NCBI GenBank assembly: GCA_049320885.1
Contig: JBMORA010000017.1
Location: 32,001-96,000, forward strand
From: Thermodesulfobacteriota bacterium
GTDB taxonomy: Bacteria > Desulfobacterota > Desulfobacteria > Desulfobacterales > SURF-7
Reading direction: 5' to 3'
DNA length: 64,000 nucleotides
Positions 1-54,733 of this stretch are shown one piece after another (the stretch's first letter is position 1; the number at the start of each line of letters is the position of its first letter). Both the position numbers and the translations under genes were made by a program. The notes under the pieces were generated by a model. That model saw only the letters and a program-made list of their open reading frames with translations, did not search any database and had not been told where the DNA came from.

Positions 1-2903
1 TTGGCTTTTTTGTAGGGCCGGTCCGAGGCGGTCAGGGCTTCGAAAATGTCGGCAATGGCCATGATGCGGGCCGATACGGACATGTCCTCTTTTTTCAGCC
101 GGCGCGGGTAACCGGTGCCGATCATGGTTTCGTGGTGAGCGCCGGCAACCTCCGCCACGTTCTCCAGGTAGACGGGGAAGGGCAGCCGCTTGAGCATCAG
201 GATGGTCTGGATCATATGCTCGTTGATCTTGAAGCGTTCTTCCTCCGTCAAGGTTCCCCGCCGGATGGACAGATTATACACTTCGCCGAGATCATACAGA
301 TGCGCGGGCACGGTCATCTGGAAACCGAAGGGGTTGCCTTCAAACGGATCGGCTTTCAGGCGCGGGATGACATGTTCGGGTTTGTCGGCCAGCAGGAACT
401 CCGAAACCGGGAGTTGCCCGGCCGGGACCCGGTTCTTCCGTTCCGCTTCTTCCTGGGAAATACCGATGCGGTCATCCAGATGGCGCCGCCATTTCCGGGA
501 GCCGATCGCTTTCAGGCGCTCGATTTCGTCGTCCCCCATGAATTCCCCGCCGACATTGCATTCGGCGACAAACGCATAATCCTCCATGATCGCCCGGCGC
601 TTCTCGCGCAGCTGCTGTTCCAGCAGGCGCTCATCCGTCTGGCCGAGAAGCCGTTTCTGGTAGTAGTCGATTTCCGCGTCCCGCAGCAGCACTTCGAAGC
701 GCATGCGGATTTCATGAATGCGATTGTAAATGGTTTCGAGTTTCGTGGCTTTATCCACCACATATTCCGGCGTGGTCACCTTGCCGCAGTCGTGGAGCCA
801 TGCGGCCACCCGGAATTCCCGCCATTGGTCTTCCGTATGCAGCCGGAAATCGGCGAAGGGGCCTTCCGCGGCGCCGTGGGCGGCCCGGGCCAGCATCACG
901 GCGATTTCGGGCACCCGGGCGCAGTGTCCGCCCGTATACGGGGATTTGGCGTCGATGGCGCCGGCCATCAATCGAATGAAGGCGTCGAACAGTTTCCGCT
1001 GCTCATCCAGGAGTTTCTTGTTGTGCAGGGCCACCGCCGCCTGGGCCGCCAGGGCCTCCACAAACCCCACGATTTCGCTGTCGAAGGCCGTGATGTCGCC
1101 GGTTTCAGCCTTGCGGGCGTTGTACACCTGCATGACGCCGATGGTTTTGCCCTCCCTGGGCTTGAGGGGCACCGTCAGGAAGGTATCGCAGGCCGTGCCG
1201 GCAGCCGCATCCATCCGGCAGGTTTCGGCCAGTCGAAACCGGTTTTCGGTTGCGACGTCGTTGATGACCACCGTCGCGCCGGTCCACACCACGTGGCTTT
1301 CCACGCGGTCATGGTTCTCGGCGCCGCTTTCCGGGTGATACAGGGGGATGCCGGCGATACTTTCGCCGGATTCGCCCCCCGCCGCAGGTTTCAAGATCTC
1401 CCGGGAGGCGGTGCGCATGATCTCGAAGCGCAGGACATCGGCCTCGTCCCGGGTGTACAACGTGCCGCCGTCCGCGTTGGAAAGCTCCTTGGCGGCGTCG
1501 AAAATCAGCTTGAGCAGCTTGTCCATGTCATCCTCGGCGGAAAGGGCGATGCCGCTCTGCACGAGTTTTTCGAGTTTTTTCTGGGTGGCGATCAGCGCGT
1601 CGGTGCGGGCCCGGATGGTGGCCTTCATGATCAGGAAGGCCTGGATGTGGGCATGGATCTCCTTGATCATGGAATCGAAGGGCGCCGATTCGGAAAAATC
1701 GAATTGTTGAATCTTCTCGGATTCTTTTTCCAGCAACACCAGGGAACGGGAAATTTTTCTGGACAGCCAGAAGGCCAGCGGCAGCGCCAATATCAGCAAA
1801 AGGCCGGCAAAAATCGCCGTTCGAATCTGCATCCGCTTTATAAACGCGGTGAAATCCGACAGCGGCGCCACGTTGCCCAGGATCAGATCGAATTTCAAGG
1901 CCGCATCCATGGCGGACAGGTGTACCAGGTGCGGGGCGCCGTTGATATCCACGATGGCGGCGCGCCGGAACAGGTCCTGCCGCCGTTCCTGATACGATCC
2001 GACAATCGCCCGGACCAGCGGGTCCTTCGATTCCGCAGCCTTCGCGAAGTCCAGCGATTCAGTGGCTCGCCCATCGACGGCGCTCACGGTTTTGACCGGC
2101 GCTTCCTTCGGGTGGGCGATCAGCCGTCCCTTTCGATCGAACAGGAACAAGGCGCCGTTTTCCGAAACCCGTTGTCTTTTCAGTGAAAGGGCGAAGCGCT
2201 CCAGGGTGATATCCGCGCCGAAAACCCCCGGGCCGAAATGCAGTTTCCTCGCACAGGTGATTCCGGGAGCTCGCGAGGATTGGAATACATAGGGTTCCGT
2301 GTATATGGCGGTGTCCGATTCGAGCGCCTTTTTGTACCAGGGCCTGGTGGCGGGCGTGAGATCCGGCTCCAGTTCATCCCGGCTACCCACCACCTTCCCG
2401 GAGCGATCCAGGAACCGCCAGTGCTGGCGGAGTTGTCCGCTCCCGTCGCGGGTGATCGCCCGGACGATATGGGCAGTATTCCCGGGCGCGCCATAGCGAT
2501 CCTGGATGTCCGCACGTCCCCGGGGAGCGATGACCTGTAAAAAACCGCCGTCGTCGTATCCGGTGTACAGCGAAAACAGATATTCGTAATGCTCCAGGGC
2601 CTTGAGCATCAGTGGCAGCCCTGGATGGGACAACCCGTCATGGGTCGGTGCCGTCGCCATGCCGGGCATCAGCGCCGCCGATCCGGCCAGAACGGACACG
2701 GATCCCAGGGCATGCCGGTACCGCTCCATGACTTTTTCGTTGATCTCGGCGAACAGCCGGTCCGCCGTGGCGATGGCGGCGGCAGTGCTTTCCCGGTAGC
2801 TGATCCAGAAAAACAGGCCGGTCATGGAAAGGACAATCGATAACACCAGTGACGTAAGACCCACATAAAACGGGAATTTTCGATTGGTCAGATCAAGCCG
2901 CAT
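1..2903 (-). CDS. Membrane Cache-HAMP-GAF-HD-GYP cyclic di-nucleotide phosphodiesterase (3' end runs off window)
   Basis: Missing from the ORF track because it is open at the edge. Manual minus-strand translation gives MRLDLTNRKFPFYVGL..., Cache motif RPWY..YVF..PGIT, KSPYTGGHC, WLHDCGK, HHE..GTGYP and IADIFEALTASDRPYKKA. Confidence 0.9.
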   Translation of the reverse strand, partial: MRLDLTNRKFPFYVGLTSLVLSIVLSMTGLFFWISYRESTAAAIATADRLFAEINEKVMERYRHALGSVSVLAGSAALMPGMATAPTHDGLSHPGLPLMLKALEHYEYLFSLYTGYDDGGFLQVIAPRGRADIQDRYGAPGNTAHIVRAITRDGSGQLRQHWRFLDRSGKVVGSRDELEPDLTPATRPWYKKALESDTAIYTEPYVFQSSRAPGITCARKLHFGPGVFGADITLERFALSLKRQRVSENGALFLFDRKGRLIAHPKEAPVKTVSAVDGRATESLDFAKAAESKDPLVRAIVGSYQERRQDLFRRAAIVDINGAPHLVHLSAMDAALKFDLILGNVAPLSDFTAFIKRMQIRTAIFAGLLLILALPLAFWLSRKISRSLVLLEKESEKIQQFDFSESAPFDSMIKEIHAHIQAFLIMKATIRARTDALIATQKKLEKLVQSGIALSAEDDMDKLLKLIFDAAKELSNADGGTLYTRDEADVLRFEIMRTASREILKPAAGGESGESIAGIPLYHPESGAENHDRVESHVVWTGATVVINDVATENRFRLAETCRMDAAAGTACDTFLTVPLKPREGKTIGVMQVYNARKAETGDITAFDSEIVGFVEALAAQAAVALHNKKLLDEQRKLFDAFIRLMAGAIDAKSPYTGGHCARVPEIAVMLARAAHGAAEGPFADFRLHTEDQWREFRVAAWLHDCGKVTTPEYVVDKATKLETIYNRIHEIRMRFEVLLRDAEIDYYQKRLLGQTDERLLEQQLREKRRAIMEDYAFVAECNVGGEFMGDDEIERLKAIGSRKWRRHLDDRIGISQEEAERKNRVPAGQLPVSEFLLADKPEHVIPRLKADPFEGNPFGFQMTVPAHLYDLGEVYNLSIRRGTLTEEERFKINEHMIQTILMLKRLPFPVYLENVAEVAGAHHETMIGTGYPRRLKKEDMSVSARIMAIADIFEALTASDRPYKKA

Positions 2904-2966
2904 GCGCACTCCGGCAACGATGAGGATCGAGTTGATATGGAAAAATCAGGCGCCATCCGGATGGCT

Positions 2967-27304: not shown

Positions 27305-28473
27305 GGCTTCACCTCCTCGGCTCCAAGCGAGATGCCGAGGGACCGCGCGAGCTTGACGAACTCGCTGTCAGCAGGCACGACCCTGATCTTGTTGATGGCC
27401 TCGGTCATGGGAACGAACTTCAGATCCGGCGGCTGGAAGACCACCATGACACCGCTCTGGCCGGCCTTCAGGGCGCGCACTGCCCCGGCGCCGTATCCCA
27501 GCCCGAGCTGGCGGTCTACGACCGTGGGTGTTCCTCCCCTGGCCAGCTGGCCCAGGACAAGGGGATAGGTTTCCTGGTCGGTCAGTCGCTGGAGTTCAAG
27601 CGCCACCTCGACGGCAATCCGGCCGGATCCTTCAATGACATGAGCGCCTTCGGCGCCGGAGGCTCCCGGAGAGAGTGAGGCCTTCATCTTTGAATCCGAA
27701 GTCCTGGGGGTTGCATCAGTTCCAGTCAATGGTTTCGCTCCTTCGGCCACCACCACCAGCCCGAAGTTTTGCCCCGCCTTCGCCTTTTTCCGTAATTTTT
27801 CCGAAACCTTGCGGAGGTCATAAGGAATCTCCGGGATGAGCACGGCATCGGCGCATACGGCCATGCCCGCCTGCAGGGCCAGCCACCCGGAGTGTTCCCC
27901 CAATACTTCAACCACGCCGATCCGGCGGGCGGACCGGGCTGCCTGCCGAAACCTTTCGAGCATGTCCGCCGTGAAACTCAAGGCGCTGTTGAATCCAAAG
28001 GAAAGGATGGTGGCGGCCACATCATTTTCAACTGATTTCGGCACAGAGACCGTCTGGAGTCCTTTCCGGCTGAGCTTCCAGAGGATGCTCAGCGCCCTGG
28101 AGCCGACCACGGAGACGATGGCATCGATCTTTTCTTTTCTGATGATCTCCAGGAGTTCATCGGACCGGTCCTTCTCCTCCACCATGTTTTCCGCGTTGAC
28201 GGCGCGGACATGGAAAGGGTCGCTTTGGGCCCCGGTGCCTAGGATACAGCCGGCGGCGCCGGCGATGTTTTCCAGGATGGCCGGTGAGAGCCGCATCACT
28301 CCGCCGTCGGGATAGCGGTCGGGAAAGAGCAGCCCTTCAAATCCGTCGCGGATCCCCAGCACTTCCCAGCCCAATTCACTTGCCGCGAGCACCACTCCGG
28401 CAATCACGGCATTGAGTCCCGGGACATAGCCCCCGCCAAAATTGACGGCAATGCGTTTTGCTGCTGTTTGCAT
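27301..28473 (-). CDS. Divergent phosphofructokinase (PfkA)-fold protein
   Basis: PGLNAVI, DGFEGL, VLIPE, VVAEG and RGG.P place it in the PFK fold, but the catalytic motifs are altered. Confidence 0.85.
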   Translation of the reverse strand: MQTAAKRIAVNFGGGYVPGLNAVIAGVVLAASELGWEVLGIRDGFEGLLFPDRYPDGGVMRLSPAILENIAGAAGCILGTGAQSDPFHVRAVNAENMVEEKDRSDELLEIIRKEKIDAIVSVVGSRALSILWKLSRKGLQTVSVPKSVENDVAATILSFGFNSALSFTADMLERFRQAARSARRIGVVEVLGEHSGWLALQAGMAVCADAVLIPEIPYDLRKVSEKLRKKAKAGQNFGLVVVAEGAKPLTGTDATPRTSDSKMKASLSPGASGAEGAHVIEGSGRIAVEVALELQRLTDQETYPLVLGQLARGGTPTVVDRQLGLGYGAGAVRALKAGQSGVMVVFQPPDLKFVPMTEAINKIRVVPADSEFVKLARSLGISLGAEEVKP

Positions 28474-28544
28474 CGATCAACCCCTTTCTTGAAGACGATT
28501 TCTGCTTTCCATTTTTTAGCAATCGTAAAAAATTTTTAAAAGGC

Positions 28545-29651
28545 TTATTTCCTTTTCATTGCAGATGCATGTAATTGATTTGGATCATTTTCGATCCATG
28601 CCGAGAAAATTTTATAAGAAATTGAGAGAACCACCGGACCGAGAAATAAACCGATAGCGCCCGACATTATCATGCCGCCGATAGCGCCAATAAGAATCAC
28701 CAGCATAGGGACTTCGACCCCCCTGCCGAGCAGGAGCGGCTTCAAAATAGCATCACTCAAAGACACAAAAACACTCCAGATCATAAAGACAACAGCCGGT
28801 GTGGTTTCCTGCACAGAAAAGACATAGACGACAATCGGACCCAGAACCAAAAGCGGCGGCAACTGAATAATTGCCAAAAATAAGACGATCAGTGCCCACA
28901 GCCCAGCCGCGGGTACGTTGGCGGCGAGCAGACCAATGCTGGCAAGAATGGCCTGTATCACGGCAATCCCCAAAACTCCCTGGACGACACTTCGTATGGT
29001 ATTGCCTGTGAGGTCTGCGAACACATCTCCTTGTTGTCTTGCCACACGCCGAAAGATCCGATGGGCAGTCTTTACACCGCCGTCTGAATTAACAAGAAAC
29101 AAACCGGCAATAATAATAGAAACAATAAACTGCATGACCGTCATCCCCAGCCCCAGTCCGGCAGAAAAAAGTTTTTTGCCATATGTCATAATATATGGTT
29201 TCAGTTGGTATATCGCTTTTTCCGTATTTTCTGAAGCCAAGCGCCAGAAATTATCGATTGGTTTACCTATCAACGGCCACCCGGCAACTTCATCCGACGG
29301 TGGCGGCACTCGTAATGTGTCGTTTTCAATGCCTGTTTTTAAGGTCTGGATACCGTTAATGGTTGAATCCATCAGCAGGGCCGCTGGGACCATCAACACT
29401 GAAAGTGCAAACAACGTTAACAAAACAGCGGACAGCTTTTTTCGATTGCCCATCATTGAGGAAAGTTTCTGATGCAAGGGGTAAATTCCGATGGCAATGA
29501 TAACACCCCAAAGGACCGGGTTAATAAATGCCCTCACAATCATAAAACTCCATACCACAAGAATTGCGATAAGGGAGATTCGGACAGATGCTTCTATCGA
29601 TTTTCCTATAAAATCGGTATCTCCTCCATTTATTTGATTGAATTTTGTCAT
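28545..29651 (-). CDS. AI-2E family transporter (YdiK-like)
   Basis: DAILKPLLLGRG..GAIGG..GAIGLFLGPVVL; RBS GGAG; AT-richer. Confidence 0.88.
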   Translation of the reverse strand: MTKFNQINGGDTDFIGKSIEASVRISLIAILVVWSFMIVRAFINPVLWGVIIAIGIYPLHQKLSSMMGNRKKLSAVLLTLFALSVLMVPAALLMDSTINGIQTLKTGIENDTLRVPPPSDEVAGWPLIGKPIDNFWRLASENTEKAIYQLKPYIMTYGKKLFSAGLGLGMTVMQFIVSIIIAGLFLVNSDGGVKTAHRIFRRVARQQGDVFADLTGNTIRSVVQGVLGIAVIQAILASIGLLAANVPAAGLWALIVLFLAIIQLPPLLVLGPIVVYVFSVQETTPAVVFMIWSVFVSLSDAILKPLLLGRGVEVPMLVILIGAIGGMIMSGAIGLFLGPVVLSISYKIFSAWIENDPNQLHASAMKRK

Positions 29652-29728
29652 CGCCTTGACTCCATTTTTTACATTTTACCTTTAGGGGTTAAAGTAGCAC
29701 TGCTAGTGCCGTTATCTATTTTGATAGA

Positions 29729-31126
29729 TCACATCTTCGATCCGCGCGATGAGCTCATCATATTGATGATATCTGCTTCTGACATGATGGGACTCTGGTC
29801 TAACCGCAACGCGCCTCCATAGGCATCCTTTGCATCATCCCAGAAGACGGGAATCCCCTTCAGGCTGCCCTCGGATGGCAATCTCAGCAAGGCCTCCCGG
29901 ATAGCGATACGAAGAGTCTCTTCAACAGGCAAGGCCCTGAAAATGGTCCCAAAAACATAATTGATATATTGATGGACATGGACCTTATGTTCTTTTTGAC
30001 TCCACATCGGGGAGATCACCTTCCTCTCAAGGCAGTCCATGAGATGGCTCACAATCGGTTCCAATACGGGCTTCACGTGAATCTGCCGCCACGATCCCGG
30101 GCCGCGGACAGGCTTCTGGACTTCAAGCCTTCTGGTATTGATCCACCTCACGCGTTCACGCGTCTTCCGGGCTCCCAGCCTTTTGACTTGGAAGACTTCG
30201 ATAAAAGCCGTCTCCACTTCGTCCACCTGGACAATAACGATATCCCTTTCCTGCATATTCGCCGCAATCCTGTCGAGTTCGCAGGCCTGCTCATCTTGTG
30301 GATATTGATTCAGAACATTTCCCAAAAACAGGACATTCTGCGTGTTCTTGATCCGTTGAGGAACATCTGTCTTTTGCAAGGTGATTCCGAATTCCGCGAG
30401 ACCTGCCTCCAGAGGATATTTTTCCATCCGGTACCCGTCCCAGGAAAGTCCAGGCTGGCTCGGGTCGCTGTCCTGTTTCTTTTCCAGCTCAATTCCTGCC
30501 TCGATCTTCACCACATCGGGCGCCAGCATTTCGTCCAGTTCCGGGTCGGAGAACTCGACCCGTTCACCTGAGTAGAGGAACGGCCGACCCATGAAATACG
30601 CCTCCCAGACCTCGTTCCCATGCAGATCGTACGAATAGGCGACGGAAGAGACCCGGCCCTTTCGATCCACCACAAAATGCCAGTCCTCCACCTGGCGCAC
30701 AGTCGCCTTGGAAGAGATCATCCGGGACAAGCATCCGCGGATCTGCTCCTCCCTGTCCCCCAGGAGACGGACGTGCGAGTAGGGCACCGCCTCGAGGCGT
30801 TCCGTGGCGACGTAATCCACATCCATCTTGAGGTCACTTGCCAAGAGCCTCTTCAAGGCGGTTGACACTTTGGCACGGGATACGCCGACATCGATGAACG
30901 CAAACCCAGGGTCCAACAGGGGTGGTCCGTCCCGGCCAGGATTTTGAGGATGCTGGAGGTCCCGCAGAAGGCTCCCGATCCCGGCATTCCTGTCAGGGAT
31001 GATGTTGGTGTCGACCAAGGGAACCGAAGTCCGAGCCTTCATGGCCGGAACATCTTCGGGCTGCTCTCGATTTCCCGTGGTGGTGCCTTGAAGCCATGAC
31101 GGGTTCCTTGCCCTCGATATCTTCAC
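29729..31126 (-). CDS. Hypothetical protein, possibly degenerate SAM-dependent methyltransferase fold
   Basis: 465-aa ORF, GTG start with GGAGG; FIDVGVS..YVATE..FLGNVLNQY loosely resemble class I methyltransferase motifs. Confidence 0.5.
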   Translation of the reverse strand: MKISRARNPSWLQGTTTGNREQPEDVPAMKARTSVPLVDTNIIPDRNAGIGSLLRDLQHPQNPGRDGPPLLDPGFAFIDVGVSRAKVSTALKRLLASDLKMDVDYVATERLEAVPYSHVRLLGDREEQIRGCLSRMISSKATVRQVEDWHFVVDRKGRVSSVAYSYDLHGNEVWEAYFMGRPFLYSGERVEFSDPELDEMLAPDVVKIEAGIELEKKQDSDPSQPGLSWDGYRMEKYPLEAGLAEFGITLQKTDVPQRIKNTQNVLFLGNVLNQYPQDEQACELDRIAANMQERDIVIVQVDEVETAFIEVFQVKRLGARKTRERVRWINTRRLEVQKPVRGPGSWRQIHVKPVLEPIVSHLMDCLERKVISPMWSQKEHKVHVHQYINYVFGTIFRALPVEETLRIAIREALLRLPSEGSLKGIPVFWDDAKDAYGGALRLDQSPIMSEADIINMMSSSRGSKM

Positions 31127-31239
31127 CTATCCTCCAAAATCCACTTCTGAAATGCCGAGTTCCGCGCCCGGTTCCGCGAGGGCATTGGTGACGGTGTTTT
31201 GCGGATGGATCATGTTATTCTCCAAGAGTCGGGCGGATT

Positions 31240-31269
31240 CGAACGCCCCCGGCGAACCGGGGGCGTTCG
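31240..31269 (-). other. Strong hairpin downstream of acnX (terminator or mRNA stabiliser)
   Basis: Perfect 13-bp stem CGAACGCCCCCGG with TTCG loop on the minus strand; no U tract. Confidence 0.65.
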
Positions 31270-31295
31270 GCGCTTCTACATACGGAAGATAGTTG

Positions 31296-32786
31296 CTAGT
31301 CGACCATCGGTTTTTCTCCCTGGTACAGCGGGTGTTCCTTTTCGCTGTCTAACCGCTCCTTGCGCGGTTTGCTCCAGTATTCCCAGCGTGCGGTCGGTGT
31401 GAACACGCCGGTCACGGCTGCGTTAACCAGGGCTTCCGGGTTGCCATAGATCCATTTCGGTCCGAAGCCGCCTCCCAGCTTAACGTACTTGAAGCTGTCC
31501 GTCGCGATGACTGTGCCCTTCGGGTAGTGTCGGATCGGGGACATGGCGATGCAGGTCTGGTGGAAGATGTGGCCACCGGCATCCTCGATGATCTTGGTAT
31601 CGCCGTAGTGCTGGGCCATGAAGTACGTGGGCGTGTCGGTCTGCACCCACAGATGTACTCCCTTTTTCACCTTCTTGCCTTTCACCAGGCGCGCAACCTC
31701 GCGGACCTCATCCCAGGTGGCGTGCGGGCAACCGAAGAAGACGATGTCCACCGGCTTCGCCTTTTCAGGTCCGGGCGCCGGCTCGATGGCGTTGAGGTGG
31801 TGGTACATCTCGATGACGTCTTCCATGGTAACCTTATAGCGTTCAGGGTTCTTGGGCATCTTGCCCTTGAAAGCGGCCTCCAGGGTTGGAGACTCCGGTG
31901 TGTAGCCCATGAGGTGCAGCATGGGGTCGTTCATGCCGGGTGAGGCGCAGGAGATCAGATTCTTTGTCGCGCCCGGGCCCATCTTCTTGGGCAGGTTGAG
32001 CACTGCCATGATCCGGTTGCCTGCCTTTTCGGCGATGGCGGCGCCCAGGGCGCCCCAGTCAGCCATACCCTTGATGTTGTCGCGGACCTCGTCAGTCAGC
32101 TCGACGACGCACTTGGCTGCACGATACTCGTCGAGGTGGGTGCCGTACTTCGGCAGGCAGCCGGTGTACGCGCAGTACACCGTGTTGATGGCGGCTTCCC
32201 GGTTGGTCCGGGCGCCCAGGATGGTGTTGATGTAGCAGGCTGCGCTGGACTCGGAGCTGGCGGCATACTCACCCATTTTGGGAATGCGGGTGTTAAAGTA
32301 GGGGTTACACGAGAGCCAGGGAAGCCAGCCATGCTCCATCAGCTTGTCGTACCCCGCCTGGAAGCCATCGACCATTTCCTTGTCGAGTCTGAAGTTTCCT
32401 TTACCCGGAATCTCGAAGTTCCATGGTTTTCCGTTCGGCGGTCCCAGGATCTCGCTGGCCTTGTCCAACTGGCACATGTAGGGATCGTTGCCGCACTCGG
32501 TGCCGGATTCGTCGTGGACATGCGCGTCCTTCATCGCGAAGATCGGATCGTAGAGCGGGCTGTGTCCCAAATCGTATTCATTGAGCTTCGCCAGTCTCTT
32601 CGGCTCCAGACGATCCTTCACATAGATGGGACAGCAGTTGAGCGTGAGGACAAGATCCACCATTTCCGTTGCTTCCACCGCTTTGCCGAAGTCCAAGAGC
32701 TTGTCCATGCAGAACTGTTTGGCTTCGCCATGTTTGCCATCCAGCATTTCCTGTTGGTACGTCGTAAGTTTCATTTTTGCTTTCAT
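31296..32786 (-). CDS. Aconitase X large (catalytic Fe-S) subunit, DUF521
   Basis: LTTYQQEMLDGKHG, SCNPY, SESSA..GARTNRE, GCPH, QTC, TDSFKY. Confidence 0.88.
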   Translation of the reverse strand: MKAKMKLTTYQQEMLDGKHGEAKQFCMDKLLDFGKAVEATEMVDLVLTLNCCPIYVKDRLEPKRLAKLNEYDLGHSPLYDPIFAMKDAHVHDESGTECGNDPYMCQLDKASEILGPPNGKPWNFEIPGKGNFRLDKEMVDGFQAGYDKLMEHGWLPWLSCNPYFNTRIPKMGEYAASSESSAACYINTILGARTNREAAINTVYCAYTGCLPKYGTHLDEYRAAKCVVELTDEVRDNIKGMADWGALGAAIAEKAGNRIMAVLNLPKKMGPGATKNLISCASPGMNDPMLHLMGYTPESPTLEAAFKGKMPKNPERYKVTMEDVIEMYHHLNAIEPAPGPEKAKPVDIVFFGCPHATWDEVREVARLVKGKKVKKGVHLWVQTDTPTYFMAQHYGDTKIIEDAGGHIFHQTCIAMSPIRHYPKGTVIATDSFKYVKLGGGFGPKWIYGNPEALVNAAVTGVFTPTARWEYWSKPRKERLDSEKEHPLYQGEKPMVD

Positions 32787-32833
32787 CGTTTTCTCCCTAT
32801 TTATCTTCTTGTCGTTTAATTCGTTGGAAAAGA

Positions 32834-33271
32834 TTACCCTTTGCGGGTAATTGTTACAGTGGCTTTCTCACCGACTTCGGGCGCGTCGATCTCAACCCAG
32901 TCGCCGGTTCTGATGGTCGTGATCGGGTCCTGGTCCAATTTGTCCACGGCGGGAATTTCACCGGCGATGGCGCCGTTGATATCGATAAAATGAACCTCCT
33001 GGCAGATGAGGCCTGCGGGGCCGTGGTTGGAGACCTTGCACTTGTAGTACAGGCTGAAGGCCCCGCTGGTGGAGCCGGCCGTCGTGGGATAGACGAAGAT
33101 CTTGCCGGTCACGATTTGGCCTTTAGTGTCAGCGCCTGGCGCCATAACCATGCCGTCCTCGTTGCCGACGTGGTTGAACGCCCATCCGATCCGCTGGCGA
33201 TTCACCAACGCTTCGCCTGCCGCTTTTCCTTTAGACCGGGCGATGCCGGTTAAAACGATTTTTTGTTCCAT
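32834..33271 (-). CDS. Aconitase X small (swivel) subunit, DUF126
   Basis: GKAAGEALV, GKIFVYP..GSTSG, GAIAGEIPAVD, TGDWVEIDA; RBS AAGGAG. Confidence 0.88.
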   Translation of the reverse strand: MEQKIVLTGIARSKGKAAGEALVNRQRIGWAFNHVGNEDGMVMAPGADTKGQIVTGKIFVYPTTAGSTSGAFSLYYKCKVSNHGPAGLICQEVHFIDINGAIAGEIPAVDKLDQDPITTIRTGDWVEIDAPEVGEKATVTITRKG

Positions 33272-33423
33272 AATATACTTCTCCTTTACTGTTTGGCGCC
33301 GCTTCCTGGGCAGGGAATGCAGCACATATGTTTTTCCCCGGGGACCGTCCCTGAGTCATCGGGAGCCCTCAAAAAATCGGATAATCCGATCAATCGCTTC
33401 ATCGTTTACAGCCCTCTCTCAAC

Positions 33424-35940
33424 TCAGCCCATGTTCTCTTCCGTCCGGGCGATGATTTCGGCCTGCTGTGAGGGTGACAGGTCGGTGAAATACGCGCAGT
33501 AGCCGGCAACCCGCACGACCAGATCCCGGTACTTTTCCGGGTTCTTCTGTGCGTCCAGCAGGGATTGTCTATTGAGGATATTGAACTGGATGTGGGCATG
33601 CTTCTGGCTGCTCCAGACGCGGATAAGCTGCATGAGCCGGCGCGTCCCTTCCTCTCCGGCCACGTTGGCCGGCGCCATCTTCATGTTGAGCAGGTCTTCC
33701 CGATGCGTTTTGTAGATCTGGCAGGTCGCCCTGGCGATGGACTGGAGGGTCACCGTGGGCCCCTTGGTGTCGCAGCCGTGGGAGGGAACGATGCCATCGG
33801 ATAGATATTCTCCGCCTCTCCGGCCGTTCGGCGTGGCCATGGTCACCCTGCCGGACGGGTTATGAAAGGTGATCGGAATGATGCGCATGTTGGCGCTCTG
33901 GCCATGGGGCCTGGGATGGTTGTGGGCATACTCCATAACGGTTCGCTGGATGTGGTAGCCGATGGTGTCCACCCATTCGATGCCGTTGCCGTACTTGGGG
34001 GCATTGAGGCACATCTGACGAATGGCCTCCATGCCTTCCCAGTCGCACTCCAGGGCATCGAGGAGCTGGCCCCATGTGAGTTTCTTCGTGTCGAAAATGA
34101 GATGCTTGATGGCAGCCAGGGAATCGATGCAGGTCGCGAACCCTCCGAGCCCGTCGATGCAGGAAGCATCCAGCGCCCCCGGGATGTAATCACCGTGGGT
34201 GTGGAGGTCCCGGCCGTGCTCCATGCACAGGTCATGGAGCGTGGAGGCTAGCGGCGCCGCGATATACTTGGGCTTCTGCGCGACCGCTATGTAGTTCTGG
34301 ATCATGATGTGCTTGACGACGTTCTCGAGCTGCATCTTGTAGGCATTCCACACGTCGTCGTAGGTCTTGAACGTCCGCGGATCACCCGTCTTCAGGCCGA
34401 ATTGCTCGTCCTTGTAGATTTTCATCCTGCCGTCCCGGAGCGTCATCTCCATGACCGCGCCGTAATTGATGCCGCCATTGCCGGTCTTGTGGGTCTCGCG
34501 GTTGGGCAGGCGCGATTCCGAGCACCCGGACATGGCGTAATCCAGGGCTTCCCGTTTCACGATCCCGTTGCTCATGAACCACGGCACCTCGAACTCGTCG
34601 TTGATCAGTTTGGGCGAACCCTTGCCGTCCTTGATGGTCTCGGCCACCGCATGCAGGAACTTGTCGGGCGTACCGGCGTGGATCCGGACCCCCAGCTCCG
34701 GGTAGCTGCACTTGAGCGGCCGGGTGGATTCCAGGATCAGGTAAGAGAGTTCGTTAGTGGCGTCGAAACCGTCGGGGGTCTGGCCGCCGATGGTCACCGT
34801 CTCGTGATGGGAGAATCCCTCGCGGCCCTTGGCTGCGGATGGCGACATTTGCGACTCGATGCTCTGCATGATGTGCAGCCAGAGGCACTGGAACAGCTCC
34901 TGGGCCGCTTCCGGCGTGATCCGGCCTTCTTCGAGGTCCTTTTTATAGGTGGGATAGAGATACTGGTCCATCCGGCCCTGATTGACTTGCCCTCCGACCA
35001 TCTCCTCCAGACGCGAGAAAAGCTGGGTGAACCACTGGGCCTGGACCGCTTCCCGGAAGGTGCGCGCCGGGTTCTTCGGAACCCAGGCGCAGACGGCCGC
35101 GATCTCCGCCAATTCCTTCTTGCGCTGGGCATTCGTCTCCTTGGCTGCCATCGCGGCGGCCAATTCGGAGTATCGTTTGGCGAAGAGGCTTAATGCGTCG
35201 CAGGTGATGATGGCCGCTTCGTAGAAGGGCTTCTTGAAAGCCAGGTCGCGCGGATCTTCCAGCGCGGCCAACCGCGCCTGGGCTTCCGCGCGCAGACCCT
35301 TACAGCCGCGCTTCAGCATTTTCTCAAAATCAGGGACCCAGTTCTGGGAATGTCGCATGGTTGAAGTGGAAATGATCACGAACGAAAACGTGGTCCCGAC
35401 ATTCTCGGGGTCAGAACCCCAGAACAAGTGTCGGGTTTCAGGAGGCAGGGCCTTGATGAAGTTTGGGGTAAAGTCCTTGCCTTTCCAATAAGGGAAAAGA
35501 ACCTCGTCAATGATCTTCTTGTCTTCCTCAGTCACGGTAACGGCGTCCGGGGCTCCGGCCTCTTTGGCCGCAATGAACGCTTTTGCTCCCTCTTGGATGA
35601 TCGTGCCGTCAAGCTCCGGGTAAACCAGCGAGTACCGTCCGAACCAGGCGCAGGGCCGGCCCACGATCAGCTCATCGTCGAAGATGGCGACCGAGATCTT
35701 TTCCGCGATGTGTTGCAGGGCTTTGGCCCAGCGCCAGACCAGCGGCTGACCTTCCGTGGCCTTGAAAGACTCCGTGAAGTATACTGCCCGTTCCAGGGCG
35801 ACCCGGGGCGGACCGGAGGAACGAATGGCGTCAAACATTCTGAGAACCCGGTCGGTGGCGGTTCCATGCAATACGTTTTTGCCGTCGGCAATGGCCTGTT
35901 CCTGTGCGGAAAGCACAGATGCAATGTGTTCATTTGTCAT
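33424..35940 (-). CDS. Glycyl radical enzyme, isethionate sulfite-lyase (IslA)-like clade, substrate unknown
   Basis: Gly loop RVAGY, Cys loop SGCSES, GRMDQY, TPNGR; YPELDG and LVWRWAKAL recall IslA/HpsG; RBS AAGGAG. Confidence 0.93.
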   Translation of the reverse strand: MTNEHIASVLSAQEQAIADGKNVLHGTATDRVLRMFDAIRSSGPPRVALERAVYFTESFKATEGQPLVWRWAKALQHIAEKISVAIFDDELIVGRPCAWFGRYSLVYPELDGTIIQEGAKAFIAAKEAGAPDAVTVTEEDKKIIDEVLFPYWKGKDFTPNFIKALPPETRHLFWGSDPENVGTTFSFVIISTSTMRHSQNWVPDFEKMLKRGCKGLRAEAQARLAALEDPRDLAFKKPFYEAAIITCDALSLFAKRYSELAAAMAAKETNAQRKKELAEIAAVCAWVPKNPARTFREAVQAQWFTQLFSRLEEMVGGQVNQGRMDQYLYPTYKKDLEEGRITPEAAQELFQCLWLHIMQSIESQMSPSAAKGREGFSHHETVTIGGQTPDGFDATNELSYLILESTRPLKCSYPELGVRIHAGTPDKFLHAVAETIKDGKGSPKLINDEFEVPWFMSNGIVKREALDYAMSGCSESRLPNRETHKTGNGGINYGAVMEMTLRDGRMKIYKDEQFGLKTGDPRTFKTYDDVWNAYKMQLENVVKHIMIQNYIAVAQKPKYIAAPLASTLHDLCMEHGRDLHTHGDYIPGALDASCIDGLGGFATCIDSLAAIKHLIFDTKKLTWGQLLDALECDWEGMEAIRQMCLNAPKYGNGIEWVDTIGYHIQRTVMEYAHNHPRPHGQSANMRIIPITFHNPSGRVTMATPNGRRGGEYLSDGIVPSHGCDTKGPTVTLQSIARATCQIYKTHREDLLNMKMAPANVAGEEGTRRLMQLIRVWSSQKHAHIQFNILNRQSLLDAQKNPEKYRDLVVRVAGYCAYFTDLSPSQQAEIIARTEENMG

Positions 35941-43533: not shown

Positions 43534-45960
43534 CTACCAGGCCATCCGTTCCGCGTCCCCTTTTTCGCCGATGCGGTGAAACCGGTAGAGGTCGAACACA
43601 CCGCCCTCGACGGGTTCCCGCTCCATGAAGGTGCGGTAATGCCAGTCGGCTTCCTGCCAGAAATCGGGGCTGTTGCGCTGGATCGAATATTTCCGGGCCA
43701 GCATGAAATAATCCACCGGGTCCTTCACCTGCAGATAGATGTCGACAGCCGCTTCCAGTTCCTCGAAGGGGATGCGCGAAAAGGCGTTGGGATAGCTGCC
43801 CATGTGACCTTTCACGACGGTCAGGGTGTCGTCCTCGATACGACGGCGGCGGTCCTCCTGGAACATCATGGAGTTGTTGCTCAGGGCCTTGTTGCGGATG
43901 AGGGTGTAGGCCAGATCCTTCTCCCCGCCGTTCATGACGATATGCATAAACGCCACATCCGGCAGGGGCTGCAAGCGCGCTCCCTTGATTTTCGTCAGCC
44001 GCCGTATCTGCCGGTCCGCGGCCTGTTCCAGGGGACCGGCATCCGGGTCGCGGCAGTCGTCCTGCTCGCAGCGGTTCAGGAAATCATGTTGGACGGCGGC
44101 CGGACCCGCATGGGCCAGCAGTTTACGAAAAAACTCGTTTTGGGGGTCGCGGGTGTGGAAAGCGACGCGGGTGCCGCGTCCGGTGCCGTGAAACTGTTCC
44201 GCGAGGTATTCCCTGGCTTCCTCCCGGGCGCCGCTGTACCAGCCGTCCCAGATTCTCTGGCGGCACTCCGGGGGCAGAAAGGACAGGAAATTGCTCTCGC
44301 CTTCCATGCGCAGGTAGTCCATATGAATCCGCGTTTCGGCCTGGTGGCCGACATTGCCGTACACATTGAAGCCGGCCACCAGCAGATAATGAACGCGCTC
44401 GAAGAGCGGATAATCGATGATCCAACCGGTTTCGGGCAGTTGACCCACAAACCCCTTGACCACGCTGGCGCTGTCGAAATGCCTGAAAATCGTCAGCAGG
44501 GCGTTGTCATTGAACCCGTCGCCGTCCCAGATGAACTCCATTCCCCGGCCCTTGCCGGACGGGTCCAGTTTTGTCAGATAACGGTTCCGGGCCTCCAGAT
44601 ACTGCCGCTGCAACCCGCGGTACTTACGCCAGACCTTCAAAATGCGGATATTGCTTTCTTCTTCCGACGGCAGGCGCAGGAAATCGCTGACTTCGGACAA
44701 AAAGGCCGAATCCGTGCTGATGGCGTCCAATTCCGGATTCGTGAAGGCCACGAAAAAATGATCGTTGATCACATTGAGGGCGATCTGACCGCGGCAGACA
44801 GGCCCTTTGATGAATCCCATCACGAAAAAGGCGGCGTCATCCAGCATGAAGCGGTAGCGGGATTCGGCCGGAATGGCCGCGAATGTCTTGAAGGCGTTGG
44901 CTTTCGTATCGTCGGCATAGCCCGGGAGCCGGTCCACCGCATAGGCGGGCTGGAGGAACAGTTCCCGGTAACGCGCCAACTTTTTCGGGTTCAGGCGATA
45001 GACCGTATGGTCCTTGACCGCCACGACGGCGTCCATCCGCCGGAATCGGTAATAGCATGTCGCTACCCCGGGATCGTCGTAAGGGCGGGTGGTGTTGATT
45101 TCCGCCACCGGCTGCCCCGGGGGCGTTTTGGAACGCACCAGGCGGTAAAACTCCCGGTCCGGCAATCCTTCGAAATGGATCCGGCCGATGAACAAATGCT
45201 CGTAAATATAGCGCGACATCAGCCGCTGTTTGGGGGTGTCGCCGTTCAGAAACGCTTCCCATTCCGCGACAATCCGTTGGGCCTTTGCCGACATGTCCGG
45301 TCCGGGTCCGACCCGGGCTCCTTGCCGCAGCCATTCCACCAGGGTCCGGTGATCCTGTTCGGGTAGACCCGGCAGGGCATAGGGCATGCCCCAGAGCGGG
45401 TATTTCTCTTCGAACTCGGCGAAGTCCTCGACGGTGGTGCAGATGTAGTTGTGATCCAGCCGCAGATCGAAGGTTTCCGACAAAAGTCCCGTTTCCGGCA
45501 GCGGGTTCTTCTGTTTCAATCGCAGCATCCGATAGAGCAGGGAGTTATCCAGATTGGCGTCCGGGTCCTGGCGTCTTTCGTTCAACACCGGATGAAAATC
45601 CAGCCCGCGCCAGGCAGTCGCCGTATCCGCATCAATGGACAGCCGGGTGGGTGGGTCGGCCGTGATCCGGGCGGAATCGTAGACCAGTTTCTTGCTGCCG
45701 CCGCGTTCAATCCCTTCGAAACTGGTCATTTTCAACTGACAGGGAGCGTCGTAACAGCTGTGGCAGACATCGCAGCGCTGCTCCAGTATGGGCTGGACAT
45801 CCTCATGGAACGAAACCAGGTCCGGCGCCTCCCCTGCCATGTTCCGATCAACAGGTGCGGCGGGGCCGTATCGGGCGTTGAATTCCGCCAGGCGGTAGAG
45901 GGTGCATCCGGCAAGAATTGAAAAAGCCAGCAACAGGAAAATCCGATATTTGGTTCTCAT
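43534..45960 (-). CDS. cti: Fatty acid cis/trans isomerase (c-type heme lipoprotein)
   Basis: CDVCHSCYDAPCQLK, WGMPYALP, FIKGPVCRGQIALNVINDHF, FRHFDSASV. Confidence 0.92.
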   Translation of the reverse strand: MRTKYRIFLLLAFSILAGCTLYRLAEFNARYGPAAPVDRNMAGEAPDLVSFHEDVQPILEQRCDVCHSCYDAPCQLKMTSFEGIERGGSKKLVYDSARITADPPTRLSIDADTATAWRGLDFHPVLNERRQDPDANLDNSLLYRMLRLKQKNPLPETGLLSETFDLRLDHNYICTTVEDFAEFEEKYPLWGMPYALPGLPEQDHRTLVEWLRQGARVGPGPDMSAKAQRIVAEWEAFLNGDTPKQRLMSRYIYEHLFIGRIHFEGLPDREFYRLVRSKTPPGQPVAEINTTRPYDDPGVATCYYRFRRMDAVVAVKDHTVYRLNPKKLARYRELFLQPAYAVDRLPGYADDTKANAFKTFAAIPAESRYRFMLDDAAFFVMGFIKGPVCRGQIALNVINDHFFVAFTNPELDAISTDSAFLSEVSDFLRLPSEEESNIRILKVWRKYRGLQRQYLEARNRYLTKLDPSGKGRGMEFIWDGDGFNDNALLTIFRHFDSASVVKGFVGQLPETGWIIDYPLFERVHYLLVAGFNVYGNVGHQAETRIHMDYLRMEGESNFLSFLPPECRQRIWDGWYSGAREEAREYLAEQFHGTGRGTRVAFHTRDPQNEFFRKLLAHAGPAAVQHDFLNRCEQDDCRDPDAGPLEQAADRQIRRLTKIKGARLQPLPDVAFMHIVMNGGEKDLAYTLIRNKALSNNSMMFQEDRRRRIEDDTLTVVKGHMGSYPNAFSRIPFEELEAAVDIYLQVKDPVDYFMLARKYSIQRNSPDFWQEADWHYRTFMEREPVEGGVFDLYRFHRIGEKGDAERMAW

Positions 45961-46007
45961 ACCCACGCTCCATTGAAAGAACTAGTCTCCAGCTCACGGC
46001 ATTTCGA

Positions 46008-50735: not shown

Positions 50736-51362
50736 CTACAGCAGGTTATTGTCATGCAGATTCATCAACAGGACCCGGCACATGGGCTCCAGCACCTCGG
50801 CGGCGGTTTTCGGATCCATGGTTTCGGAGGAAACCGACCAGATCAGTTTTTCCGTCGCGGCACTGTAGAGATTGGTCTCCAGGCGCACGAAAACATGCTC
50901 GCTGTAATAATCCGGGTAGTACACATAGGTGGTGACATAGGTATAGTAGGTACCGAAGCCGTAATAATAGCTTCGTGGAATCCACTGATCGCCGGAAGGA
51001 TCGTAGACTTCGTCCTTGTCCACCCCCAACAGATGGGTGACCATCACCGTATCCAGTCCCAACTCCAGGGCTTTGGCTTTCAGGGTTTCCTTGGTTATCT
51101 GTTGATCGAGGGGCATCACCGCCGAGCTGGCCACCGCCGCAACGCCTTCGTTTTTGAATTCCCTGACGAAGGTTTCTTCAAACAGTTTGCGTTTGGCCGG
51201 TTTGTCGAAAATGCCGACGATCAGGAGCTTTTTAACAGGACCGTCTTTGTATTCCGCGTCTTTGTAGACGGAATAGAGCTGGGTGGTGGTGGAACAGCCT
51301 GTGATGCCCGCAACCAACAGGAATACGGCCATCGCCAGCAGGAGGGTGAATCGGCTCAACAT
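50736..51362 (-). CDS. DUF4136-like lipoprotein (paralog of 22341-22961)
   Basis: Lipobox ITGC; HVFVRLETNLY..ATEKLIWSVSSE. Confidence 0.75.
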   Translation of the reverse strand: MLSRFTLLLAMAVFLLVAGITGCSTTTQLYSVYKDAEYKDGPVKKLLIVGIFDKPAKRKLFEETFVREFKNEGVAAVASSAVMPLDQQITKETLKAKALELGLDTVMVTHLLGVDKDEVYDPSGDQWIPRSYYYGFGTYYTYVTTYVYYPDYYSEHVFVRLETNLYSAATEKLIWSVSSETMDPKTAAEVLEPMCRVLLMNLHDNNLL

Positions 51363-51718: not shown

Positions 51719-52249
51719 ATGACCAGAAAACATGCATTGTCGTCCATCGTTGCCGTTCTGTTGCTGTCGGCCTGTGCGTCGTTTCCCACCCGGGATATCC
51801 AGGTGGAAGCCCAGGCCGATCCCAAGGCCAATTTCAGCGGGTACAAAACCTATGCCTGGCTGGGGACGGCGGCCATCGTCAATGATCCCCACGGCCAATG
51901 GGAACCCCCCGCCTTTGACGCGGATGCGGAAATCAAATACCTGATCGATAGGGAACTGCGGGCACGCAACATGTCGGAAAGCACCACCAACCCGGATCTG
52001 ATCGTGGCCTTCGCCGCCGGTGTCGATATGGAGGCCCTGGGATTGAAAACCGACCCGGAGACTAAAATGACGCAGGTGACGAATGTTCCCCAGGGTTCCC
52101 TGGTCATCGCGCTGGTGGACAGTGAAACCGGCTTTGCCATCTGGCTTGGAGTGGCCTCGGCGGAGGTTCAGGACAATCCCGATGAGAAAACGGTGAAAGC
52201 GCGCCTGAACTACGCGGTGACCCGCTTGTTCCAGGAAATGCCCCGATAA
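51719..52249 (+). CDS. DUF4136 lipoprotein
   Basis: Lipobox LSAC, NFSGYKTYAW, GSLVIALVD..IWLG; RBS GAGGAG. Confidence 0.82.
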   Translation: MTRKHALSSIVAVLLLSACASFPTRDIQVEAQADPKANFSGYKTYAWLGTAAIVNDPHGQWEPPAFDADAEIKYLIDRELRARNMSESTTNPDLIVAFAAGVDMEALGLKTDPETKMTQVTNVPQGSLVIALVDSETGFAIWLGVASAEVQDNPDEKTVKARLNYAVTRLFQEMPR

Positions 52250-52344: not shown

Positions 52345-53952
52345 ATGATGCCGAATTCCACTGCCCGTATCCGCAATCCGCTGTTGCTGCACCTTGCCCT
52401 GCTGATTGTTCTGGTCGTCGGGGCCCTTGTCGCGGCGACATTCTGGATCGGCAGGGAGCTCCGCGAAGAGGTGTTCACCCGGTTTGTCACCGTTGCAACG
52501 GAACAGGCCCGCAAAGAATTCCATGCCTGCTTTTCGCCCATGACCGACACGCTGGCCCTGGTGCGGGGCTGGGGCCGGGCCGGGGACCTGGATGTCACCG
52601 ACACGGTCGCCTTGAACGCCCGATTCATGCCATTCCTGGAAATGCATACGGACCTGTCGGCGATTTTGCTGGCCCGTTCGGACGGGGTCCTCTATTTCCT
52701 CCTGCACAACGGCGGCGAATGGCTTACGCGTTCCCAGACAGAGCCGCAGAACCCCGGCGCAGCCGTATGGCGCAGATGGAAAGGTCCCGGGGAAATCCTG
52801 GACGAGCGCCGGGCGGATGACGGCGTCGACCCCAGGCAGCGGCCCTGGTACCAGGGCGCTCTGGAGCAGGGGCAGGGGGGCGGCATCTTCTGGACATCCC
52901 CTTATGTGTTTCAAACCCTGCGGCAGCCGGGCGTCACCCTGGCCGTCAGCTGGAATGACGGGCATCACACCTACGTCGCCGCCTTTGACGTGCTGCTGGA
53001 TCGGATTGCCGAAGCGGTGCGCACCGTGGGGCAGCGCCAGGAGGACAAGGTGTTTCTGGTGACCGACCGATGGACCATTTTCGATGCGTCGGGGCGGCCG
53101 GCTGCCGGAAAGCAACCCGCCCCCGTGGAAGCGTATTTCCATTCGCCGGCCACCTATCCTGCGCCGGGGGTCGCGGCGGCGGTGGCTGCGTGGCAGCAGC
53201 GGGGCAGGCAGGCGGCCGCCGCGTTCCGCTACACCGCCCAAGGGGAGCCGTTCTGGGCCGGATTCCAGTCGCTGGGAGGGCCGGGCCGCCTGTGGCTGGG
53301 CTGCTGCCTGCCGGAGCGCGCGCTTTCGGAAAGCATGGGAAGTCGCCGCGGGCCGTATTTCGTGGCGGTGGGTCTGATCCTGGCGGGCGCCGGAGCCGCG
53401 GCCTGGATGCTGGTCCGCCGCCATAGCCGCCGCCTGCAGCAGATGCCGGCCAGGCTCCTGGAGGGGGCCGACCCGGTCCAGGCCGCCCTGGAAGTGATTC
53501 GTTCCGGGGAAAGCGACACCGTTGAATTCAAATCCACCATGCGCATGAACCTGCATACCGGCAAGCCCGGCAAGGAAATGGAACTGGCCTGGCTGAAAAC
53601 CGTGGCGGCGTTCCTGAATACCAGCGGCGGCATCCTGTTTTTCGGCGTCGGCGATGACGGCGCCGTCCTGGGCATGGAAGCGGACGGATTCCCCAGCGGG
53701 GACAAATGCCGCCTGCATTTCGAGAACCTGATCAGCCAGCACATCGGCATGGAGCATGCCCGCTCCCTCCGATTCACCATCCTGTCCATTGACGGAAAAT
53801 CGGTCGGAGCGGTCGCCTGCGAACGCTCGGACTCCCCGGTTTTTCTGAAAACCTCCAAGGAGGAGGCTTTTTACATCCGCTCCGGGCCGTCCAGCATTCA
53901 GCTGCCGGTCAGCAAGGTCCTGTCGTATTTGAAAAACCCTTCCAATTTTTGA
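52345..53952 (+). CDS. Membrane Cache sensor fused to a Schlafen/AlbA_2 domain
   Basis: TM1, Cache motif DPRQRPWY..WTSPYVF..PGVT..FD, TM2, then ESDTVEFKST..AAFLNTSGG.LFFGVGDDG..FYIRSG. Confidence 0.85.
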   Translation: MMPNSTARIRNPLLLHLALLIVLVVGALVAATFWIGRELREEVFTRFVTVATEQARKEFHACFSPMTDTLALVRGWGRAGDLDVTDTVALNARFMPFLEMHTDLSAILLARSDGVLYFLLHNGGEWLTRSQTEPQNPGAAVWRRWKGPGEILDERRADDGVDPRQRPWYQGALEQGQGGGIFWTSPYVFQTLRQPGVTLAVSWNDGHHTYVAAFDVLLDRIAEAVRTVGQRQEDKVFLVTDRWTIFDASGRPAAGKQPAPVEAYFHSPATYPAPGVAAAVAAWQQRGRQAAAAFRYTAQGEPFWAGFQSLGGPGRLWLGCCLPERALSESMGSRRGPYFVAVGLILAGAGAAAWMLVRRHSRRLQQMPARLLEGADPVQAALEVIRSGESDTVEFKSTMRMNLHTGKPGKEMELAWLKTVAAFLNTSGGILFFGVGDDGAVLGMEADGFPSGDKCRLHFENLISQHIGMEHARSLRFTILSIDGKSVGAVACERSDSPVFLKTSKEEAFYIRSGPSSIQLPVSKVLSYLKNPSNF

Positions 53953-54271
53953 TAATGGCAATGACTTCTCTGATATAGGCGCATTCGCATTCAGCGGGGC
54001 ATGATCGCAGCTCATCTTGGTACAGGCAGTATCCCGGGCATTTTTCCGTATGGGTTGCTTTCACCTGGAAAATCGGACCATCATAGAGGTCAACGAATTC
54101 CGAAGCGGGAATCGTCAACGTGCCTTTACAGGAATGGTTGAAGTAAAGAGAACCGGATTCGAGCCTTTTAAAATTCGCCTGATAACCGATTATGGTAATC
54201 ATGGGATCACGTAAAAACGTATCACGGCAATCCCATTCAAACCCGCAATTGTTGCATTTTTTGAATGGCAT
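53909..54271 (-). CDS. Small cysteine-rich hypothetical protein
   Basis: 120 aa with 9 Cys (CxxC, CxxxC, CxxxCxC); RBS GAGG; AT-richer. Confidence 0.65.
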   Translation of the reverse strand: MPFKKCNNCGFEWDCRDTFLRDPMITIIGYQANFKRLESGSLYFNHSCKGTLTIPASEFVDLYDGPIFQVKATHTEKCPGYCLYQDELRSCPAECECAYIREVIAIIKNWKGFSNTTGPC

Positions 54272-54325: not shown

Positions 54326-54733
54326 CTATGGCAGCATCGCCGGTTTCCGGTCGCTCCAGGGAAGGGCTCTCTCCAGCTGGGCCGCGAGCTGCAGGAGGGT
54401 GGCCTCGCCACCGAAACGGCCGAAGAATTGCACGCCGCAGGGCAGGCCGTCCGCGGTCCAGTGCAGGGGCACGGACATGGCGGGCTGACCGGTGATGTTG
54501 GCGATCATGGTCAGGGGCATCTGGCCCTTCATGGTATTGTGCAGCATCTCCTCCAGAATGGCATAAGTGATTTTCCGGCTGCCTGTCAGAATGCTGCCCA
54601 TCGGCGAAGAAAGGATCCTCATGGCCAGGCGGTCCGTCATTCCCGGTTTTTGGGAGCCCACCGTCACCGGCGGCCTTCCCAGGGTGGGGCAGAGGAGCAT
54701 GTCGAAGCGTTCATACTCGGAAAAAGCGCCCAT
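54326..54733 (-). pseudogene. C-terminal fragment of an amidase-signature enzyme
   Basis: [39 protein letters not shown]; the Lys/Ser/Ser catalytic region is absent. Confidence 0.75.

Follow-up and report, generated by a model that had tools for sequence, protein, structure and literature searches.

The nearest described counterparts of the protein considered here are RorSlfn5 (PMC13056530), CbCash (PMC13462974) and RzAgo (bioRxiv 10.64898/2026.05.29.728809). As these sources describe them, all three are soluble, proven defence effectors that sense a phage protein, cA4 or target DNA. Each fuses a sensor to a single-lobe Schlafen domain, whose Ex4(E/D)xK-type motif is required for cleavage. 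The mechanistic model for them is activation that depends on oligomers, and in CbCash (PMC13462974) and RorSlfn5 the oligomers are switched by the sensor. In RzAgo the single-lobe Schlafen domains pair, rebuilding a two-lobed tRNA cleft to which one lobe brings the site of catalysis and its partner a basic patch (bioRxiv 10.64898/2026.05.29.728809). The survey of prokaryotic Schlafens (pSlfns) by Perez Taboada et al. (Nat Microbiol 2026, PMC13056530) places ∼30% of them outside defence islands and leaves non-immune roles open.

The combination of a Cache sensor with a Schlafen output has been catalogued twice. Supplementary Table 2 of the 2026 survey lists Cache.pSlfn as pSlfn12 (25 of 5,930 proteins), a composition of Cache and pSlfn only that is shared with the protein described below; among our homologs, L041 from Desulfoluna limicola (NZ_AP024488.1, ORF 4451), with 34% identity over residues 1-531, appears there under pSlfn12, and two others are filed as ‘unannotated fusion’. 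A tractable sulfate reducer, NC_007519.1, is also among the carriers of pSlfn12. In that paper pSlfn12 is a table entry outside the four architectures tested, and its main text uses none of the words ‘cache’, ‘membrane’ and ‘periplasm’ (PMC13056530). Dataset S2 of Gumerov et al. (PNAS 2022, PMC8915833) lists ‘AlbA_2,dCache_1’ for 11 proteins carrying the amino-acid motif, five of which are also in our set (L056, L014, L059, L046, P0064); the pocket motif is thus shared, and the main text there is without mention of AlbA or Schlafen. Searches of mainly open-access literature returned no paper on the Cache-Schlafen fusion; the census in the RzAgo preprint may also list it. The sequence-only reading had asked for an architecture search on Cache plus AlbA_2: the architecture is already present in these two supplementary tables, but tested in neither. 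The protein is a new member of a catalogued class, as an untested membrane-receptor variant of the sensor-gated Schlafens.

On the sensor side, fold and motif are shared with one-component dCache_1 receptors, which have SpoIIE, cyclase, HD-GYP or kinase outputs, and with PctA and Mlp24. Unlike these receptors, the protein has a nuclease-type output domain and a short tether in which HAMP was not detected. From RorSlfn5, CbCash and RzAgo it differs in being membrane-anchored, in its nutrient-type outer sensor and in belonging to another Schlafen subfamily. For the layout as a whole there is an analogue in eukaryotic IRE1, where a luminal sensor, a membrane helix and a cytoplasmic RNase are joined in one protein and the RNase is switched by oligomerisation. 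The analogy is functional only: the folds are unrelated (IRE1 has a KEN RNase plus kinase), and no homology is claimed.

The gene lies in a 64,000-nucleotide stretch, called the window here, of a Thermodesulfobacteriota genome (Table 1). Its reading frame opens with ATG codons at both 52345 and 52348. Two transmembrane segments are found in 113/120 aligned proteins (the best 120 of 255 homologs), and basic residues are bunched ahead of TM1 and behind TM2. This pattern matches a topology with the N-terminus inside, the sensor outside and the Schlafen domain inside, which we infer for the protein. The tether from the end of TM2 to E389 has nearly constant length, with 31 residues in 70/98 sequences and 26-32 in 93/98; a Pfam scan of the protein detected no HAMP domain, and an NCBIfam scan gave no match. 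The AlphaFold2 (AF2) model of the whole protein has pLDDT 91 and pTM 0.69. The transmembrane scan, Pfam and the AF2 fold matches agree on the layout first read from the letters, TM-Cache-TM with Schlafen/AlbA_2 as the sole cytoplasmic output. An assembly artefact was considered and ruled out, because the full-length fusion recurs in many genomes; in addition, a single contig from run X1, which may be the source sample, spans the entire stretch with zero differences. Variants called from low-depth contigs were uninformative, and a look-up of RNA data sets carrying the sequence listed none.

Table 1. Features of the Cache-Schlafen gene and of other genes in the window (positions are those of the window).
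Feature	Position	Strand	Basis or remark
Whole ORF, 535 aa, TM-dCache-TM-Schlafen	52345..53952	+	full-length homologs at 32-46% identity
TM1, residues 13-31	52381..52437	+	hydropathy scan
Extracytoplasmic double-Cache (dCache_1-like) domain, residues ~33-334	52441..53346	+	Pfam, profile, AF2 superposition
Distal-pocket motif V161 (family Tyr), R166, W168, Y187, D215	52825..52989	+	alignment to PctA
TM2, residues 339-357, then basic RRHSRR stretch	53359..53415	+	hydropathy scan
Short helical tether without HAMP, TM2 to E389	53416..53508	+	AF2 model, homolog alignment
Single-lobe Schlafen/AlbA_2 domain, residues ~381-532, reaching the C-terminus	53485..53940	+	Pfam, isolated-domain model
Catalytic-type Ex4ExK motif, E389-E394-K396	53509..53532	+	alignment
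Cys-rich ORF, 120 aa, CxxC, CxxxC-like spacing, lower GC	53909-54271	-	
Amidase C-terminal fragment, 135 aa, apparently truncated gene	54326-54733	-	downstream of the Cache-Schlafen gene
DUF4136-like lipoprotein genes	50736-51362, 51719-52249, 22341-22961		flank the Cache-Schlafen gene; same-contig paralogs, 71-74% DNA identity
dCache-GAF-HD-GYP protein	3..2909	-	open at window edge; distantly related sensor, context not partner
Fic-domain gene	10223-11737	-	
Glycyl-radical enzyme (PFL-like) catabolic cluster, uncharacterised	26333-35940	-	
Fatty-acid cis/trans isomerase (CTI) gene	43534-45966	-	

Pfam SLFN_AlbA_2 (PF04326) matches residues 389-520 with E 3.2e-19 and a score of 70.1 bits, where the cut-off is 25.3. 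A model of the isolated domain (pLDDT 96.5) superposes on DIP2311 (3lmm) and the hSAMD9 tRNase domain with Z 13.2 and rmsd 3.4-3.6 Å over 140-153 aligned residues. Matches to SLFN5/11/12/14 mostly have Z 8-10, and unrelated folds score at most 6.2. Both motifs named in the original reading are in place: ESDTVEFK at 389-396 and, for the claimed GVxDDG, GVGDDG at 434-439. The family motif aligns with the active-site motif of SLFN11/SLFN14. The triad E389/E394/K396 is invariant in 120/120 of the best 120 of 255 homologs and in 98/98 genome-derived sequences, query included, both sets having been gathered by similarity to the query. Median identity to the query is 56% in the Schlafen part and 26% in the sensor. 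An HMM match above cut-off and homologs that keep the catalytic Glu/Lys, together with a Cache domain recognised by fold, bear out both domains.

The subfamily has features of its own. W416, H458, R512 and P515 are invariant, and an extra, subfamily-specific basic loop (R400, K407, K410, K418) follows the Ex4ExK motif. The subfamily profile matches CbCash weakly (E 0.005). Kinship to the phage-tested EcoSlfn7 was rejected, this protein not being matched by the profile. The next-closest Schlafen domains, at 38-45% identity, are DUF262 fusions beside restriction systems.

The domain could instead have an output that is not destructive and act as a regulator without cutting tRNA in bulk: it would bind or process one particular RNA or DNA at the membrane, or its triad would be kept for binding metal or nucleic acid. 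The invariant loop and the four invariant residues suggest a specific partner, REC fusions of this subfamily (below) imply graded, reversible control, and no antitoxin-like neighbour was seen; among mammalian SLFNs several are non-catalytic (PMC13462974). As that source describes them, however, the non-catalytic SLFNs have lost the catalytic residues; in the Cache-Schlafen family the triad never varies, even though overall identity is 32-46%. Such an output seems unlikely.

The sensor is recognised more readily by fold than by Pfam, where dCache_1 (PF02743) matches residues 97-248 weakly (E 2.7e-6, 27.5 bits, under the cut-off of 45). The family profile matches PctA at E 2.6e-16. The AF2 model shows the double-PDC fold that defines dCache_1, with a long N-terminal helix, between the two transmembrane segments. 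Residues ∼33-334 superpose on Mlp24, PctA and PctB with Z 19.2-19.3 and rmsd 2.9-3.2 Å over 227-233 aligned residues, Mlp24 being the best (Z 19.3, 2.9 Å, 233 aligned). These top structural matches are amino-acid chemoreceptors, but amine receptors match nearly as well (McpX, Z 18.1), so the ligand cannot be read from the fold by itself. The likeness noted earlier between this Cache motif and that of the HD-GYP protein in the window holds, but the relationship is remote: 30% over 158 columns, with a pairwise E of 9e-13.

The amino-acid motif of dCache_1AA corresponds to PctA Y121, R126, W128, Y144 and D173, as given by Gumerov et al. (PMC8915833). In the best 120 of 255 homologs the aligned positions are Y161 in 104/120, R166 in 116/120, W168 in 120/120, Y187 in 117/120 and D215 in 118/120; the Tyr-bearing homologs include L014 (Marichromatium gracile) and L041. 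The full Y-R-W-Y-D motif is present in 99/120 of these and in 57/98 genome-derived sequences; the R-W-Y-D core is present in 114/120 and 87/98. The remaining 11/98 genome-derived sequences are without the core and nonetheless retain the triad. According to the published class definitions, dCache_1AM does not conserve the R126 position and dCache_1PU is without the D173 position, so that at these two positions the conserved R166 and D215 fit the amino-acid class better. As the family aligns to the amino-acid motif, it is predicted to sense amino acids; the ligand is probably an amino acid or a close relative. The sub-lineages L091-L097, in which the Cache pocket has lost the motif and the Schlafen triad is kept, suggest that other ligands are used there.

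The window's own copy has Val at the first motif position and so falls outside the strict dCache_1AA pattern [YFL]x4RxW..Y..D. The V....R.W variant has 0 occurrences in Gumerov Dataset S1 (PMC8915833), where Tyr, Phe and Leu variants occur. Neither the motif in the family nor this departure from it figured in the earlier reading. Ligand binding by the V161 copy may be weaker or altered. In the Schlafen domain the same copy carries K460E at a 96%-conserved lysine. The two substitutions might signal a gene that is decaying, or that has lost sensing, after recent transfer; a search of 17 further genomes from the host's taxonomic family, some of them incomplete, did not find the gene, and an amidase fragment lies nearby. 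The reading frame is intact, however. The copy deviates at 3/76 conserved positions, and 31/119 homologs deviate equally or more; the triad is complete, and the pocket departs from the motif at a single one of its five positions. Decay is a very improbable explanation.

Of 8000 candidates scored in the homolog search, 255 proteins reached E ≤ 0.001, and a genome scan retained 80 loci. Their hosts are Chromatiaceae, other Gammaproteobacteria, Thermodesulfobacteriota, Kiritimatiellota, Verrucomicrobiota, Calditrichota, Bacteroidota, Planctomycetota and Myxococcota. The ESM Atlas contains clusters of 52, 336 and 55 members (score 0.99). Within the window's order the full-length fusion is present in 12/201 genomes, the source genome counted. 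One tight starred clade of Schlafen domains joins three phyla. Neither 72,556 plasmids nor the viral contigs searched, in both of which the hosts are probably under-sampled, yielded a full-length copy. At L011/L116 (19,294 b) the sensor part of the homolog is broken into two reading frames that overlap, by either a frameshift or an assembly error.

In the window the gene sits in a patchwork region. An operon with its neighbours was considered and is unsupported, the flanking genes matching separate contigs in two same-genus genomes; a promoter and terminator scan stayed at shuffle level. The Cys-rich ORF is convergent with the gene, overlaps its 3′ end by 44 nt and has no match in Pfam, NCBIfam or PADLOC. 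A DUF4136 gene also adjoins homolog L030. The glycyl-radical cluster includes aconitase X subunit(s), a probable activating enzyme and a phosphofructokinase-like gene, and a 465-aa ORF at 29729-31126 has no Pfam match.

Both halves of the protein are exchanged with other modules. Elsewhere in the order the sensor half alone precedes outputs of other kinds, namely histidine kinase, HD-GYP, adenylate cyclase and SpoIIE (9/9 sensor-only loci scanned), and in the quick tree the nearest sampled sensors are dCache-SpoIIE proteins. The same Schlafen subfamily occurs behind receiver (REC) domains (L099, L101, L102, P0204), behind a cNMP-binding domain (P0205, one protein), behind TM-only N-termini (L103, L131, L132) and in an SBP_bac_3-TM-Schlafen protein (L107:1258-2631, minus strand), a second, independent fusion to an extracellular sensor. 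L099, L101 and L102 are ORFs of 331-397 aa, REC-Schlafen fusions with the triad intact and a domain close to that of the Cache family; they are candidates for a phosphorylation-gated RNase. The 2026 table lists ‘CheY.pSlfn’ as pSlfn18, and SBP fusions are unnamed among the 55 pSlfn compositions inspected there (PMC13056530). Two membrane-anchored Schlafens, L133:5992-6993 (minus strand) and L134:5152-6495 (plus strand), form a divergent branch whose extracytoplasmic region has no Pfam match. The Schlafen half also stands behind defence-type modules: DUF262/GmrSD, TRD-like and HsdR. Among 287 candidates for longer fusions, >937 aa, there was one match, an HsdR-Schlafen, which is weak evidence.

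Domain trees, all unrooted, were built with every one of the 66 rows (quick tree) and with 59 domains after seven long-branch rows were dropped (careful tree). In the careful tree the Cache family and three REC fusions make up one side, with support of 86/85 that is not starred; eight DUF262 fusions form a starred clade. That the REC-Schlafen fusions arose within the Cache family is what the best tree shows, but this is not established: the Cache proteins as one clade are not rejected (p-AU 0.365).

A sensor that heads kinases, cyclases and phosphatases, and a Schlafen domain that follows REC, cNMP and SBP inputs, are evidence for physiological signalling. The failure to find the gene in the 17 family relatives, the patchwork region and the three-phylum clade speak against a core role; patchiness and a clade across phyla are also what mobile defence genes show.

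Gene neighbourhoods are lineage-dependent and consist mostly of housekeeping genes, with synteny maintained across Chromatiaceae genera. Across the 80 loci, and among 64 neighbours scanned with Pfam, no conserved partner or inhibitor gene emerged. In 14/80 loci (L002-L004, L006, L007, L009, L016, L021, L022, L032, L042, L045, L053, L074) the gene of a CCA-adding enzyme with an HD domain runs convergently, either directly next to the Cache-Schlafen gene or no more than 1.2 kb away, placing a tRNA-end repair enzyme beside a putative tRNase. Because all 14 loci are gammaproteobacterial, the adjacency is treated as what may be simple clade synteny. In Kiritimatiellae/Verrucomicrobiota, eight loci (L025, L027, L035, L049, L051, L056, L061, L064) have a co-directional trio of phospholipase D-like, Cache-Schlafen and TatD genes.

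The defence scan covered 36 loci with up to two genes per side (142 proteins from crude gene calls; L008 and L029 were dropped for size). Raw PADLOC matches occur in 15/36 Cache loci, 14 of which were judged to be housekeeping folds, chiefly on Pfam evidence and in a few cases from clusters or inference: PLD, TatD, SAM methyltransferases, sigma-54 AAA, OmpA, ABC, aspartyl protease and helicase. The TatD/QatD and protease/PDC-M08B matches cover whole profiles and are ambiguous. After curation, 1/36 loci has a clear defence gene within two genes (Cas3, L014), compared with restriction or candidate defence genes in 4/7 DUF262/TRD-Schlafen controls; these seven had adequate flanks, and four more had flanks too short to judge. 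The Cache-Schlafen protein itself matches 0 PADLOC families at E ≤ 0.1, and the 64-kb window holds no defence gene except an OmpA/ZorB cross-match. The survey's published defence scores are 0.36 for pSlfn12, 0.5 for CheY fusions and 0.16 for pSlfn10, compared with 0.76 and 0.69 for proven groups and an authors' cut-off of 0.5 (PMC13056530). The first reading had named translation control, dormancy and defence together as options; of these, phage defence is the one least supported by gene context and by the published score.

A defensive function would have the Cache domain detect molecules from lysing neighbours or a damaged envelope, and the Schlafen domain cut tRNA to bring on dormancy or abortive infection. 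The characterised prokaryotic Schlafens considered here are, as their sources describe them, defence tRNases, and the patchy distribution, the cross-phylum transfer and the kinship to DUF262-, TRD- and HsdR-fused domains fit such a danger sensor. So do the PLD-receptor-TatD trio in Kiritimatiellae and scattered neighbours: besides the Cas3, a TIR (L057), a PIN (L072) and an integrase (L055). The sensor, however, belongs to an ordinary nutrient class, the housekeeping synteny in Chromatiaceae is stable, clear defence neighbours are all but missing from the scanned loci and the window, and the pSlfn12 score lies under the cut-off of the survey's authors (PMC13056530). On balance, danger sensing is an improbable role for the family.

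We put at an even chance the reading that the protein is a ligand-gated RNase receptor that tunes translation as part of ordinary physiology and not of phage defence. A one-component Cache-to-Schlafen receptor, as proposed earlier, agrees with the architecture and the conserved triad; its ligand-gated RNase activity stays an inference. The RNA substrate would most likely be tRNA. dCache receptors dimerise, and the Cache-Schlafen receptor would do so too. Gated RNase activity is favoured because a dimeric receptor would hold two Schlafen lobes on a short, fixed tether. A ligand in the distal pocket would shift TM2 and the fixed-length tether, and this shift would move the two lobes into or out of a paired tRNA cleft of the kind formed by RzAgo and SLFN11, with the conserved basic loop (R400, K407, K410, K418) as a possible RNA-binding patch. 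The sign of the switch is weakly constrained, with a slight lean towards a receptor that is off when ligand is bound and on when it is free; if on without ligand, it would let scarcity slow translation.

That a branch of the immune Schlafen tRNases has been domesticated as a general signalling output, ranking with kinases, cyclases and phosphatases and fed by Cache, solute-binding, receiver and cNMP inputs, falls somewhat short of an even chance; it would give receptor ribonucleases of an IRE1 type that link an extracellular amino acid to tRNA cleavage and translation straight across the membrane. The characterised prokaryotic Schlafens considered here are, in the sources cited, soluble immune tRNases, and the Cache-Schlafen family makes the question of a non-immune role testable: its ligand class is predicted, and both the pocket (at R166 and D215) and the active site (at E389 and E394) can be mutated. 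If the reading is true, RNA cleavage would join the outputs of bacterial transmembrane receptors, and slow-growing sediment anaerobes and purple sulfur bacteria would gain a one-protein route from nutrient to translation.
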